Below are positions 37,958 to 44,513 of a DNA stretch of 64,000 bases, one piece after another; position 1 is the first letter of the stretch; every line of letters begins with the position of its first letter. The notes under the pieces are model-generated. The model did no database searches, was not told where the DNA came from, and was given only the letters and a program-made list of their open reading frames with translations. The position numbers and the translations under genes are program-made. The stretch is from Alphaproteobacteria bacterium UBA3768 (GTDB lineage: Bacteria; Pseudomonadota; Alphaproteobacteria; CAAHEQ01; UBA3637), in contig DFFU01000004.1 of the NCBI GenBank assembly GCA_002372315.1, positions 29,785 through 93,784 of the forward strand. The letters run 5' to 3'.

Positions 37958-38869
37958 CTACGCATTTTTAACAGATTTGTCAAGTGGGGTTTTTATCTTA
38001 CTAATAGCCTCAGCCCCAGAAACAATATCAATCAGTTCATCTGTAATTTGATTTTGTCGCATTTGTTGATAAAGCAACTCTAACTCATTGAGCTTTTCAT
38101 CAATATTCTTTTCTGCTTGTTGCATATGTATCATACGAGTATAATGTTCTGATGCTAAAGAAGCTGTTAGAGCATGGGTTACAGATAGGGTAAAATATTC
38201 ATGTATGAAAGCAGAAAAAAGTTCTTTATAATCAGCAGTTACCAAAGGCAAAGATCTGCCAGTCCATTTCTTTGTTTTTAAATTTTCAAGTATTCCTTTT
38301 TGAAAAGGAATCAACTGTTCTGCTTGAACTTTTAATCCAGTTGCTTGACGTGAAGTGTAAAAGAGCCAGACTGAATCAAAACCTTCATGAGAAACAGAAT
38401 GGTGAATTTTTGCTAAAATAACATTGGATAAAGGTGAAATTTCTTTGATGGTATTAGAATTGTTATAACAGGCCAATTTAGGCGTTTCTTTTGGAAAATT
38501 AAAATGCGCTAAGCGTTTGCCGACTGTAATAACTTTGATCTGACTTTGAGGAAATTGATCGTATAAAGTATCTTGCATTTTTTTGATGACATCACGATTA
38601 AAACGACCTACTAATCCATTATCTGATCCTATAACGATGGCAAGTACTTTGTTCTTTTGTTTTGATATCTCAGGAACTTCAAATTGAAAATTTTCTTGAA
38701 CAAAAAGACCTTGAAAAGCCAAATATAAATTTTCATTGCATTGCTTTAAAGATTTTAACGCTTTTTCAAATTGTCCCACAGAAACAGATGACAACATTTT
38801 CATTGTGCTGACGATACCGCGCAGGTCATTTGTTGTTTTAATGCGTTTATTTAATATTTCTTGACTCAT
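37958..38869 (-). CDS. atpG: ATP synthase gamma subunit (N-ATPase-type operon)
   Basis: gamma-subunit N- and C-terminal helices; overlaps atpA by 4 nt. Confidence 0.85.
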   Translation of the reverse strand: MSQEILNKRIKTTNDLRGIVSTMKMLSSVSVGQFEKALKSLKQCNENLYLAFQGLFVQENFQFEVPEISKQKNKVLAIVIGSDNGLVGRFNRDVIKKMQDTLYDQFPQSQIKVITVGKRLAHFNFPKETPKLACYNNSNTIKEISPLSNVILAKIHHSVSHEGFDSVWLFYTSRQATGLKVQAEQLIPFQKGILENLKTKKWTGRSLPLVTADYKELFSAFIHEYFTLSVTHALTASLASEHYTRMIHMQQAEKNIDEKLNELELLYQQMRQNQITDELIDIVSGAEAISKIKTPLDKSVKNA

Positions 38870-40392
38870 TCCTTGGAAACCAATCCTTTTTTTATCAGGG
38901 CGTGTTCAAATGTCTTTAACAGAAGTTCTTTATCTTTTTCATTCAATTTTTCTTTTTTTTCTGTCCAAGCTGTTATCATGTGTGAAAAATTATTTTTTAA
39001 AATTTGATCAATCAACTCTTGTGCAGTGGATATTTTTTCTTCAGTAACATTATCCAGTAATCCATTATTCAATGCTAAAAAAATACCTATTTGGGTGCTT
39101 GCATCAAATAAAAGGTATTGACGTTGTTGCAAAACGGAACGTATTGTGCGTCCACGTTTTAAGCGTGCTAGCGTATCCCCTTCCATTTGGACTCCAAATT
39201 TGGAAAAAGATTCCAATTCTTCAAATTGAGAATAGAAAAGTTTTAATGGGGCTACCAAGGAACGATAAGCTGGTAATTGTGCACTACTTCCCACACGAGA
39301 TACTGAACGACCAGTATCAATAGCAGGCATTTGCCCTTTTTGATATAATGCGTTTGATAGGTATATTTGTCCGTCTGTGATTGAAATAACATTTGTAGGA
39401 ATATAGGCCGAAATATTTCCTGCTTCTGTGGCCACAATGGGGAGAGCCGTTAAAGATCCACCACCAAATTTAGGGCGCAAATGAGTAGCGCGTTCCAATA
39501 AACGTGAATGTAAATAAAAAATATCACCTGGATAGGCCTCGCGTCCAGGTGGCGTACGTAACAATAATGACATTTGTCGATAAGCTCTTGCATGTGCTGT
39601 CAAATCATCATAAACAACTAAAACATCTTTTCCTTTACTCATAAAATATTCACCAATAGAGGTGGCTGCGTAGGGGGCGATGTATTGTAAACCAGCTTCA
39701 TCTTCACCACTAGCGATAACAACAACACTGTTTTTCAACATATCGTACTCATTTAATGTATTGATGACACGTGCAGTATCACTTAAGCGTTGACCAATGG
39801 CACAATATATGCAAATTACTCCAGAATTCTTTTGATTTAAAATGGTATCAACAGCAATAGCGGTTTTCCCAGTTTGTCTGTCGCCCAATATCAATTCACG
39901 TTGGCCACGACCAATTGGTGTAAAACAGTCAATGGCCTTTATACCAGTTTGTAGAGGGGTATTTACAGGTAAGCGTGCCATAATGGGAGGGGCCTCACGC
40001 TCAATAGGAAGGGTTTGTTTTGTGGCCAATATTCCTTTGTTATCCAACGGTTGTCCCAATGGATTGATAACGCGACCAAGCAATTCATTGCCAACAGGAA
40101 TATCTAAAACTTTATGTGTTTGGGTGGCTCTATCACCCGCTTTGAGTGTATCAGCGTTTGTTAAAAAAATGACACCCGCTCCTTCATTGGATAAACTGTG
40201 AACCATACCAATGACACCATTTTTAAAACTTAATAGTTCATTGATTTTTGCATGGGTTAACCCAGAAACAATAGCTGTTCCAGCCGATAATGATTCAATG
40301 GAATTAACTTCCTTTATGCGTAATTGAAAAGAAGATTTGTTTAGTGCTTTGCTAACATTTTTTCGCGCGGCTTTGGCAATATTTTTTTGCAT
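38866..40392 (-). CDS. atpA: ATP synthase alpha subunit (N-ATPase-type operon)
   Basis: Walker A GDRQTGKT and conserved alpha-subunit motifs. Confidence 0.9.
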   Translation of the reverse strand: MQKNIAKAARKNVSKALNKSSFQLRIKEVNSIESLSAGTAIVSGLTHAKINELLSFKNGVIGMVHSLSNEGAGVIFLTNADTLKAGDRATQTHKVLDIPVGNELLGRVINPLGQPLDNKGILATKQTLPIEREAPPIMARLPVNTPLQTGIKAIDCFTPIGRGQRELILGDRQTGKTAIAVDTILNQKNSGVICIYCAIGQRLSDTARVINTLNEYDMLKNSVVVIASGEDEAGLQYIAPYAATSIGEYFMSKGKDVLVVYDDLTAHARAYRQMSLLLRTPPGREAYPGDIFYLHSRLLERATHLRPKFGGGSLTALPIVATEAGNISAYIPTNVISITDGQIYLSNALYQKGQMPAIDTGRSVSRVGSSAQLPAYRSLVAPLKLFYSQFEELESFSKFGVQMEGDTLARLKRGRTIRSVLQQRQYLLFDASTQIGIFLALNNGLLDNVTEEKISTAQELIDQILKNNFSHMITAWTEKKEKLNEKDKELLLKTFEHALIKKGLVSKE

Positions 40393-40400
40393 TGGCTCTC

Positions 40401-42439: not shown

Positions 42440-42737
42440 TTTTCTTTCCTTTCTGAAGTTGATAGGATTTTTTGAGCCATATTGTGGCATTAATAAAACC
42501 AATAACAAAACCAACAATAATCAAATTAAATGACCATGAAAAATTAGTGGGATGATATTTATCCAATAGGCATCCGATAAAAATCCCCAGTACAACAGGA
42601 ATAGCAATTTGCCAGCCATATATACTTAAAATAGCCACATTATAATTGATTTTAATCTGACTGCGTCTTTGGCGCTTATTTGCCTTTTGAATTAATTGGT
42701 TGGCTGTTTTATTCAATTGCCTTTGAAAATCAGACAT
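42432..42737 (-). CDS. atpQ: N-ATPase-associated small membrane protein AtpQ/AtpI-like
   Basis: 101-aa two-helix membrane protein placed between atpC and atpR. Confidence 0.5.
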   Translation of the reverse strand: MSDFQRQLNKTANQLIQKANKRQRRSQIKINYNVAILSIYGWQIAIPVVLGIFIGCLLDKYHPTNFSWSFNLIIVGFVIGFINATIWLKKSYQLQKGKKND

Positions 42738-43128
42738 GCCCTACCTCCGATGCATTCAAGGTTATCAAACCTTTTGTCAGGCCTAATTCCAAACGTGACA
42801 TAGAAACCAAAAGTTCTTTTCTTTCTTGTTCCATTTGTTTAAAATCAAACGCAATTGTTTTTTTGAGTTTTTCCAAATCATCATCTTGAATAGCCACAGA
42901 TGTTGAAATAGTAACTTCATCACCTTTTTTAACAACGACGCCTTTATCACAGGCTACAAAATAAGTCTTATCATTTGTTGTATATTGAACAATAGTTTGC
43001 TTTAATGTATCCACAAAATCAATGTGCTTAGGCAGTAAAGTAAAAAATCCATCCAATGCTTCAAAGTCCACCTTTGTAATTTCGGTGTCTACTTCAATTT
43101 GCATCGGTGTCAGGATTTTTAATCTCAT
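42730..43128 (-). CDS. atpC: ATP synthase epsilon subunit
   Basis: 132-aa beta-sandwich plus helical hairpin typical of epsilon; overlaps atpD by 4 nt. Confidence 0.75.
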
Positions 43129-44513
43129 AAATTACCCTTTCTTTTTTTAGCTTTTTGAATGGCCTCTTCAATTTTTCCAACCATAAAAAAGTCATCTTCT
43201 GTAAAATCTTTGAATTCACCTGATAAGATACGTTCGCATCCTGTAATAGTGTCCTCTAAGTCCACAGAACGCCCTTGCATGCCTGTAAATTGATTGGTCG
43301 TGAAAAATGGCTGAGTTAAAAAACGTTCCAATTTGCGTGCAGTTTGAACGATTTGTTGGTCTTTTTCGGGTAATTCATCAAAACCCAACATGGCGATAAT
43401 GTCCTTTAATTCTTCATATTGGGCTAAGGTTTTGCGCACCTCTGTAGCTATTTTATAATGCCTGTCACCGACAATTAAAGGGGTTAGCATATTTGATCCT
43501 GATTCTAATGGATCTACAGCGGGATAAAGTCCTTGAGCAGCACGATTACGTGATAAAACAATTGTGGACGATAAGTGTGCAAACGTGTGGGTTGCAGAAG
43601 GATCTGTAAAATCATCTGCAGGCACATAAACTGCTTGAATGGATGTAATGGCAGCTTCTTTCGTGGAAGAAATACGTTCTTCCAAATCTGCTAAATCTGT
43701 TCCTAAGTTAGGTTGATATCCTACTCGGGAAGGAATTTGCCCCAAGGAGACAGATACTTCTGAACCAGCTTGAATAAAACGAAAGATATTATCAATCAAT
43801 AAAAGAACATCACTTTTCTTTTCATCACGAAAGTATTCTGCCATTGTCAAAGCAGATAGCGGAACACGAAAACGTACGCCCGGTGGTTCGTTCATCTGTC
43901 CAAACACCATAACAGTTTTACCCAAAACCCCAGCTTGTTGCATCTCACGATAAAGATCTTCACCTTCGCGAGAACGTTCGCCAACACCAGCAAAAATACT
44001 AACGCCTTCATAACGGCCAACCATGTTGTTAATCATTTCGGTAATCAAAACTGTTTTACCAACACCAGCTCCTCCAAATAATCCTGCTTTACCACCACGT
44101 TCCATGGGGGCAAGCAAGTCAATGGCTTTAATCCCCGTCACAAAAATTTGACCGCTGACATTCAATTTAGAAATTGGTTGAGATTGGGCGTGAATGGGGC
44201 GTAATGGTACATTTTTTAATTCAGCTTTATCATCCATTGGATTTCCTAATACATTGAACATACGTCCCAAAACTTTATTTCCAACGGGCACTTCAATGGG
44301 GTGACCTAAGTCTTGAACAGACATTCCGCGTGCTAAACCTTGTGTGGAGCCCATCGCAAGTGTACGGACTGTATGTTCATTCGCATAGCTTTGAACCTCC
44401 AAAATTAAATCACCGACTTTTAGTGCATTAAACACTGAAGGCAGATTATTTTGAAAAGCAACCGAAACTATGCTTCCGGAAATAGAAACAATTTTTCCTG
44501 AATTATTTGACAT
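43125..44513 (-). CDS. atpD: ATP synthase beta subunit (N-ATPase-type operon)
   Basis: Walker [16 protein letters not shown]-equivalent region and conserved beta-subunit motifs. Confidence 0.9.

Follow-up and report, generated by a model that had tools for sequence, protein, structure and literature searches.

A complete N-type rotary ATPase operon, probably encoding a Na+ pump, in an uncultured alphaproteobacterium of a gut clade

The N-ATPases form a subfamily within the F-type ATPases that has been known since 2010. It was described then (PMC2881411) that their genes follow the order atpDCQRBEFAG, that AtpR carries membrane Arg residues, that a long AtpF resembles the delta subunit and that the c subunit combines two Glu residues with an ESTxxY motif. 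The delta-like C-terminus of AtpF was reported for the family as a whole in the same study and was built into a later survey (PMC11738941). The building of a sodium-motive force by ATP hydrolysis is the function that was proposed for the family (PMC2881411), and the criterion for Na+ specificity in the literature is a prediction from the sequence (PMC2881411, PMC11738941). The sole N-type c ring that has been studied biochemically, the c17 ring of Burkholderia pseudomallei, has a helix-1 Glu and the motif E-T-M-x-x-Y and is H+-specific (PMC5376962). Here, an operon of this type is described that lies at positions 37958-44513 of a stretch of 64,000 nucleotides (the window) from Alphaproteobacteria bacterium UBA3768 (contig DFFU01000004.1, positions 29,785 to 93,784). 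We consider it very likely that this locus encodes a rotary ATPase of the N-type (N1No; F-type ATPases with the operon order atpDCQRBEFAG) that is complete and intact, probably works as a Na+ pump and is vertically inherited. The operon is a somewhat divergent member of the family; the features that were noted in it are family hallmarks and none is peculiar to this locus.

Gene content and family assignment of the operon

The interval is filled exactly, on the minus strand, by nine intact and tightly packed open reading frames (ORFs) in the ORF list of the window, and a second, independent gene prediction for the source contig gave nine identical gene models. A preliminary description, which was made from the letters of the window, had given the gene order as beta, epsilon, two membrane proteins, a, c, b, alpha and gamma, and both the ORFs and the gene calls agree with this. 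The junctions, most of which were there said to overlap or to be 1-9 nt apart, measured -4, -8, -8, -7, +3, +9, +8 and -4 nt in the order of transcription and thus range from -8 to +9 nt. As had also been claimed, a delta gene (atpH) was found neither inside nor adjoining the operon in the ORF list and the gene calls. The flanking genes were named correctly as well: they are accD (TIGR00515, 351 bits, above the cutoff), an IHF-beta-like gene (ihfB; 110.7 bits, the model cutoff being 115) and nadK, which encodes an NAD kinase and is divergently oriented. The peptides that had been quoted (...MIESTAIYAFV..., GPALGE and VMGVEIRIQDIAIDWTIKNYLDEMQQAL) were all found in the translations. For atpR, an ORF that starts with TTG extends to 42517; the gene caller gave a product of 97 residues from an ATG (Table 1).

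The nine products were compared with profile models. In all seven core subunits the 'alternate F1F0' TIGR model scored far above the standard F-type model (Table 1), with E-values of 1e-220 for beta, 2e-205 for alpha, 1e-79 for a and 6e-62 for gamma. The top matches of AtpQ and AtpR were the only N-specific models that exist for these proteins. AtpQ, which has two hydrophobic stretches and stands in the place of AtpI, matched TIGR02230 with 65 bits (cutoff 46.7) and PF09527 with 42 bits (gathering score 26.6). AtpR matched PF12966 with 44.6 bits (gathering score 26) and TIGR03165 with 28.6 bits, which is under the cutoff of 55.5; according to its hydropathy profile, Arg53 and Arg83 fall within hydrophobic stretches. 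A homologue of AtpR was not found among the PDB entries by a PDB search. The beta subunit has a Walker A motif (GGAGVGKT) at residue 147, GERSREG at 178 and DELPEKD at 379, the alpha subunit has a Walker A motif (GDRQTGKT) at residue 170, and the essential Arg of the a subunit is found at position 164 within AFRLYGN. As judged from the translations, all nine subunits are present and carry the residues that are predicted to serve catalysis and coupling.

Table 1. Genes and other features of the operon, with the scores of the products (in bits) against profile models of the N-type and of the standard F-type.
Feature	Positions	Strand	Length	N-type model (bits)	Standard F-type model (bits)	Remarks
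atpD, N-type F1 beta	43125-44513	-	462 aa	TIGR03305 alt_F1F0 (733)	TIGR01039 (651)	
atpC, epsilon	42730-43128	-	132 aa	TIGR03166 (96.1)	TIGR01216 (35.2)	Pfam ATP-synt_DE_N, 49.5 bits
atpQ ('gene 1'), small membrane protein	42432-42737	-	101 aa	TIGR02230; PF09527		
atpR, N-ATPase hallmark membrane protein	42146-42439	-	97 aa	PF12966		Start at ATG 42439
atpB, a subunit	41457-42152	-	231 aa	TIGR03306 altF1_A (266.9)	TIGR01131 (114)	
atpE, c subunit	41175-41453	-	92 aa	TIGR03322 (122.5)	TIGR01260 (55.4)	Predicted two-carboxylate Na+-type ligand set
atpF, long b subunit	40401-41165	-	254 aa	TIGR03321 (150.2)	F-type model (38.5)	Membrane anchor, coiled coil and C-terminal delta/OSCP-like domain
atpA, N-type F1 alpha	38866-40392	-	508 aa	TIGR03324 (683.5)	TIGR00962 (578.7)	
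atpG, gamma	37958-38869	-	303 aa	TIGR03323 (209.6)	TIGR01146 (138.8)	Pfam ATP-synt, 190.6 bits
Divergent intergenic region atpD/nadK	44514-44628	.	115 nt			Presumed operon promoter region

The relation of the subunits to those of other rotary ATPases was studied in trees. A scan in which each GTDB species was represented by a single genome yielded 80 loci, which by gene order comprised about 60 N-type (D-C-Q-R-B-E-F-A-G) and 15 F-type operons (B-E-F-H-A-G-D-C). Neighbour-joining trees, which are distance-based and were made with our own script, were built from the window sequence, 43-55 further loci of the N-order, in which many phyla are represented, and 11-15 of the F-order. The N-order and F-order sequences were separated with a bootstrap of 60/60 for beta, alpha and gamma and of 57/60 for a, and the window protein was found on the N side in every one of these trees. 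With five additional loci whose gene order was not known, the beta tree recovered this split in 51/100 replicates, and without those five in 60/60. The identity of the window beta is 58-63% with the N-type betas of other loci and 54-58% with F-type betas. In a PDB search the F1 beta of Paracoccus denitrificans (5cdf/5dn6) ranked well under F-type betas of unrelated bacteria. This indicates that the window beta is not particularly close to the F-type of Alphaproteobacteria. Alpha and beta, with an N/F split of 60/60 and higher scores against the N-type models, do not cluster with the canonical F-type, and gene order, model scores, the presence of AtpR and AtpQ and the trees all agree with the N-ATPase membership that was proposed in the preliminary description.

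Close homologues are labelled 'F0F1 ATP synthase subunit beta' by the NCBI pipeline, as would be expected if the locus encoded a canonical F1Fo ATP synthase with merely rearranged genes. Such an enzyme is extremely improbable here. Neither the separate delta gene nor the atp(I)BEFHAGDC or split alphaproteobacterial order that mark the canonical operon were found, whereas AtpR and AtpQ are present; the N-type models outscore the F-type ones in all seven core subunits, the trees part N-order from F-order operons and the Paracoccus F1 beta is no preferred match in the PDB. The plain name arises because the scores are under the cutoffs of the 'alternate' models. It is of some consequence, since metabolic reconstructions of gut Alphaproteobacteria that rely on this label may wrongly infer a proton-driven ATP synthase.

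Peripheral stalk, c subunit and ion specificity

In AtpF, residues 8-136 matched the Pfam family ATP-synt_B (47.7 bits) and residues 165-247 matched OSCP (27.2 bits, gathering score 22.3). Profiles were built from the AtpF and AtpH proteins of the fetched loci and were compared by hhalign (51 N-type AtpF versus 12 F-type AtpH). Residues 176-250 of AtpF aligned with residues 109-181 of delta with a probability of 96% and E=4e-9, and OSCP chains in the PDB weakly matched residues 176-249. The N-terminal helical domain of the F-type delta subunit binds the N-termini of alpha. It is this domain that has no counterpart in AtpF, as the similarity covers only the C-terminal one. The delta-like C-terminus of AtpF in the preliminary description is upheld by these results for the C-terminal domain of delta only. 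The sequence comparisons show a predicted peripheral stalk that consists of a single long b subunit, with homology between its C-terminus and the C-terminal domain of delta.

In helix 2 of the c subunit the ligand residues are Glu63-Ser64-Thr65-x-x-Tyr68, to which helix 1 adds Glu30. HMMER alignment to the Na+-binding c subunits of Fusobacterium nucleatum (3zk1; GPGIGEG.../AESTGIY) and Ilyobacter tartaricus (1yce) was free of gaps in the ligand region. The window residues match 3zk1 at every Na+-ligand position and the positions of 1yce also align, in accordance with the earlier claim of a Glu/Ser-Thr/Tyr ligand set with a helix-1 Glu. By this alignment the c subunit is shown to have the full predicted ligand set of the two-carboxylate Na+ rings. 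Ser64 and Thr65 would favour Na+ coupling, because the H+-specific ring of B. pseudomallei has T-M at the place of this Ser and Thr. The helix-1 packing motif is GxGxAxGxA; going by published Gly-to-Ala effects, the ring may exceed c11 in size.

The pattern of two Glu residues and ESTxxY was present in most of about 55 N-order loci. Many N-order loci of other phyla were observed to have E-S-I, E-S-L or E-S-V, and several have Gln for the helix-1 Glu. It follows from this variation of the c site that the predicted Na+/H+ specificity switches repeatedly within the family. Within the group of four gut relatives that is described below, E-S-T-x-x-Y is kept in three; the c subunit of the fourth, a metagenome-assembled genome (MAG) from roe deer (L005 13193-13459), reads E-T-T-x-x-Y.

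The departure of this relative from E-S-T is one of the observations that would fit a H+-coupled N-ATPase as in B. pseudomallei, which could use ATP to pump protons and so serve pH homeostasis in an acidic gut or abomasum. One of the relatives was indeed obtained from goat abomasum. Moreover, the only assayed N-type ring is H+-specific despite its helix-1 Glu (PMC5376962), and the H+-type is predicted for about one half of the GTDB N-ATPases (PMC11738941). We nevertheless regard H+ coupling as unlikely for the window enzyme, which has Ser64 and Thr65 where the Burkholderia enzyme has T62-M63, matches every ligand position of the F. nucleatum Na+ site and shares E-S-T-x-x-Y with three of the four gut relatives.

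Inheritance and proposed role in the gut clade

The window sequence was also found within the 195-kb metagenome contig ENA ERZ12302850 NODE_34 and in one Logan assembly. Protein searches gave more than 120 clusters for beta, with identities of 77-92%, and more than 120 for LysS, with identities of at least 68%; all of these were from MAGs of uncultured Alphaproteobacteria. Four species-representative relatives were available, one from goat abomasum, one from roe deer jejunum, an 'INTA.CYC' MAG and one from a 'Nepal' sample, and the operon order is kept in all four of these gut MAGs (beta identity 73-83%). The relative L003 also keeps the synteny nadK...atp...ihfB-accD-DUF2155, although its NadK is merely 33% identical; the identities to its beta, AccD and IhfB are 83%, 68% and 58%, respectively. 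In the other relatives tyrS, accC, obg, rsfS and enolase are neighbours of the operon. The window and the four gut MAGs were monophyletic for four subunits (56-60 of 60 bootstraps). The GC content is 0.34-0.36 in the operon, within the range of 0.31-0.40 of the window. Mobile-element genes were not seen in approximately 84 kb around the locus, which comprise the window and 10 kb past each of its ends, or in the neighbourhoods of the relatives, and an RNA scan detected two tRNAs and no rRNA in the window.

The conserved order, the partial synteny, the housekeeping neighbours, the parity in GC content, the monophyly and the lack of mobile genes near the operon point to a long-resident operon, inherited vertically, that belongs to the core genome of the gut clade, which is a large one. 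Likely, it entered the ancestor of this clade by an ancient transfer. N-ATPase operons have been reported to be highly mobile and at times plasmid-borne (PMC2881411), and many phyla are intermixed in the family tree. Both facts would be in line with a recently acquired, accessory operon that came by lateral transfer. For the present locus this is very improbable, as it shows no compositional anomaly, has no mobile-element genes nearby, forms one group with the other four gut sequences in the trees of four subunits and is flanked by genes in conserved synteny with L003. Vertical inheritance means that an N-ATPase is stably kept in a host-associated lineage, contrary to the mobile accessory operon of salt-exposed bacteria.

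Among the genes of the approximately 84 kb around the locus are those for translation, envelope, glycogen and regulation, and many of the encoded proteins have no family match; respiratory genes, and biosynthetic genes other than accD, were not found in this region. The uncultured gut alphaproteobacterial orders RF32 and Rs-D84 have been described as metabolically reduced (PMC8992543), and orders of this kind as fermentative (PMC12306168, PMC8992543). Genomes of Rs-D84 reportedly measure 0.67-1.6 Mb and have neither a TCA (tricarboxylic acid) cycle nor a respiratory chain, and a 'F0F1-type ATP synthase' and an ion-pumping pyrophosphatase occur in only some of them (PMC12306168). If the host of the present operon is a fermenter, ATP hydrolysis that expels Na+ is the most plausible mode of action. 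Most likely, the enzyme works mainly in the direction of hydrolysis, in an organism that is apparently metabolically reduced. ATP would be hydrolysed by the F1-type alpha3beta3 part, and gamma and epsilon would drive the rotation of the c ring past the a subunit with its Arg164. Na+ bound at Glu63, Ser64, Thr65, Tyr68 and Glu30 would thereby be carried out of the cell, and its export would provide a sodium-motive force and a membrane potential, on which transport and ion homeostasis could draw. AtpR, with two putatively membrane-embedded Arg residues, and AtpQ probably assist the assembly of the c ring or its regulation, as was proposed for the family.

Several points weigh against the conclusion that the locus encodes a vertically inherited, Na+-pumping N-ATPase. 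Eight of the nine subunits score under the NCBIfam curated cutoffs of the 'alternate F1F0' models, which implies that the operon represents a divergent branch of the N-ATPase family. The trees were made without an alphaproteobacterial F-type sequence, a gap that is covered by the PDB ranking only. Two-carboxylate sites can be H+-selective, and L005 has E-T-T in place of E-S-T. From these sequences we infer Na+ coupling of the enzyme, and the direction of pumping is inferred likewise. The link to a fermentative lifestyle without a respiratory chain is indirect, RF32 and Rs-D84 both being possible orders for the organism. Finally, a cyanobacterial N-type enzyme is, in the title of the work as cited in PMC9927469, a Na+-dependent ATP synthase.

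Unless it is the sole rotary ATPase of the cell, the operon is an ordinary member of its family. That it is the only one in this lineage, the ancestral, mitochondrion-like F-type enzyme of Alphaproteobacteria having been lost together with respiration and the N-type enzyme having been left as the one source of ion-motive force or as a Na+ ATP synthase that works reversibly, is compatible with the N-type identity of the locus and adds to it the claim that the operon is not a second copy. Order and context are conserved across a deep gut clade, with more than 120 beta clusters at an identity of at least 77% and synteny that persists at 33% NadK identity. Beta (83%) is more conserved between the window and L003 than AccD (68%) and IhfB (58%), as is expected of an indispensable enzyme. 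A second alpha or beta gene was found neither in the approximately 84 kb surrounding the operon nor in any of the relatives' four loci of 21 kb. The Rs-D84 genomes, which have no respiratory chain and in part no 'F0F1-type ATP synthase' (PMC12306168), also agree with this possibility, and a precedent exists in the genus T78 (Chloroflexota), of which 18 of 20 genomes have the N-type only (PMC11738941). On the other hand, our view of the genome is confined to the approximately 84 kb, and according to the literature (PMC2881411, PMC4154653, PMC10656485) N-ATPases occur beside an enzyme of the F- or A-type. Among 45,555 bacterial genomes of GTDB, a survey names T78 alone as N-only and does not mention gut Alphaproteobacteria (PMC11738941), and the presence of accD and accC suggests a genome that is less reduced than those of the most extreme Rs-D84. 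Considering both sides, we hold a sole rotary ATPase for possible and put it forward tentatively. If it were true, an enzyme regarded as a dispensable and laterally moving 'second copy' would have become an essential generator of ion-motive force. This would be the first N-only case in the Proteobacteria and the first with a predicted Na+ enzyme. The rule that the N-ATPase is always the second enzyme would be broken in a second phylum, and a natural system would be at hand to ask whether N-ATPases can carry the whole chemiosmotic load.

Neighbourhood of the operon and comparison with known systems

Upstream of atpD, a weak promoter-like site on the minus strand (44666-44639) was detected as a pattern match only. 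A perfect sigma-70 consensus on the plus strand (TTGACA, 17 nt, TATAAT; 44581-44609), likewise a pattern match only, lies inside the atpD/nadK region, 20 nt before the nadK ATG at 44629, and is the sole 12/12 match in the 8.5 kb that were scanned. The scan for promoters and terminators gave fewer sites than in shuffled sequence, and therefore no firm statement on the boundaries of transcription is made. At the other end, the IHF-beta-like gene (37649-37957, the gap to atpG included) starts 24 nt past the atpG stop and overlaps accD by 4 nt; a terminator-like site between atpG and this gene was not found in the pattern scan. The adjacency of atpG and ihfB is also seen in L003 (16562-16883), with a gap of 43 nt; in L004 ihfB-accD is located approximately 5 kb upstream instead. 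As judged from this spacing, atpDCQRBEFAG-ihfB-accD may form one transcription unit of 11 genes.

Elsewhere in the window, a protein of 460 residues (3226-4608, plus strand) matches the Pfam family Mucin2_WxxW and no NCBIfam model. This domain is known chiefly from mucins of animals, and the protein may interact with the host. A GT10-type fucosyltransferase (48808-49791, minus strand; Pfam FucT_N and Glyco_transf_10, no NCBIfam match) belongs to a type that makes host-like Lewis antigens in Helicobacter pylori. An outer-membrane beta-barrel protein is encoded at 45456-46379 on the plus strand (Pfam OMP_b-brl/Opacity, weak Surface_Ag_2); it scored 80.7 bits, below the threshold, against the model of the rickettsial adhesin Adr and is followed by a protein of 159 residues without a family match. 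Large proteins without a Pfam match are encoded within the window (426 and 473 residues, 60411-63160), approximately 2 kb past its right end (2120 residues, L085 12721-19083) and past its left end (715, 465 and 795 residues, L083 1-5920). This run fits the 'many hypothetical proteins' of reduced gut lineages. A compact trio at 34306-35400 on the plus strand codes for a HPr kinase reduced to its C-terminal part, EIIA-Man and HPr, and presumably resembles the regulatory, non-transport phosphotransferase system module of Alphaproteobacteria.

With the N-ATPase family, as known for example from Methanosarcina and marine cyanobacteria (PMC2881411), the operon shares the identical gene order, an AtpR with two membrane Arg residues, AtpQ, the absence of atpH, a long AtpF with a delta-like C-terminus, a Glu in both c helices together with ESTxxY, and subunits that stand apart from the F-type. 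It differs in being a core-genome operon, apparently vertically inherited, of a host-associated and AT-rich alphaproteobacterial clade, whereas elsewhere the family is a patchy and mobile 'second copy' in marine and halotolerant organisms.

The N-type ATPase of B. pseudomallei (PMC5376962) is similar in operon type, in the identical position of Arg164 in the a subunit and in the helix-1 Glu of the c subunit. However, its H+-coupled c subunit has E61-T62-M63-x-x-Y66 where the window c subunit has E63-S64-T65-x-x-Y68. The helix-1 motif is AxGxAxAxG in Burkholderia and GxGxAxGxA in the window, and the size of the ring may differ accordingly. The c subunits of F. nucleatum (3zk1) and I. tartaricus (1yce) share with the window the ligand positions, E-S-T-x-x-Y and a C-terminal tail of the LILLYANPF type; the helix-1 ligand residue is a Glu in the window and in F. 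nucleatum and a Gln in I. tartaricus. Their enzymes are nonetheless canonical F-type ones with delta and the F-type gene order, without AtpR and AtpQ, and act as ATP synthases. Finally, the genus T78 (PMC11738941) would be in the same N-only situation as the gut clade if the latter lacks F- and A-type enzymes. T78 belongs to another phylum, its enzymes are predicted to be of the H+-type, and it is in T78 that the N-only state has been documented.

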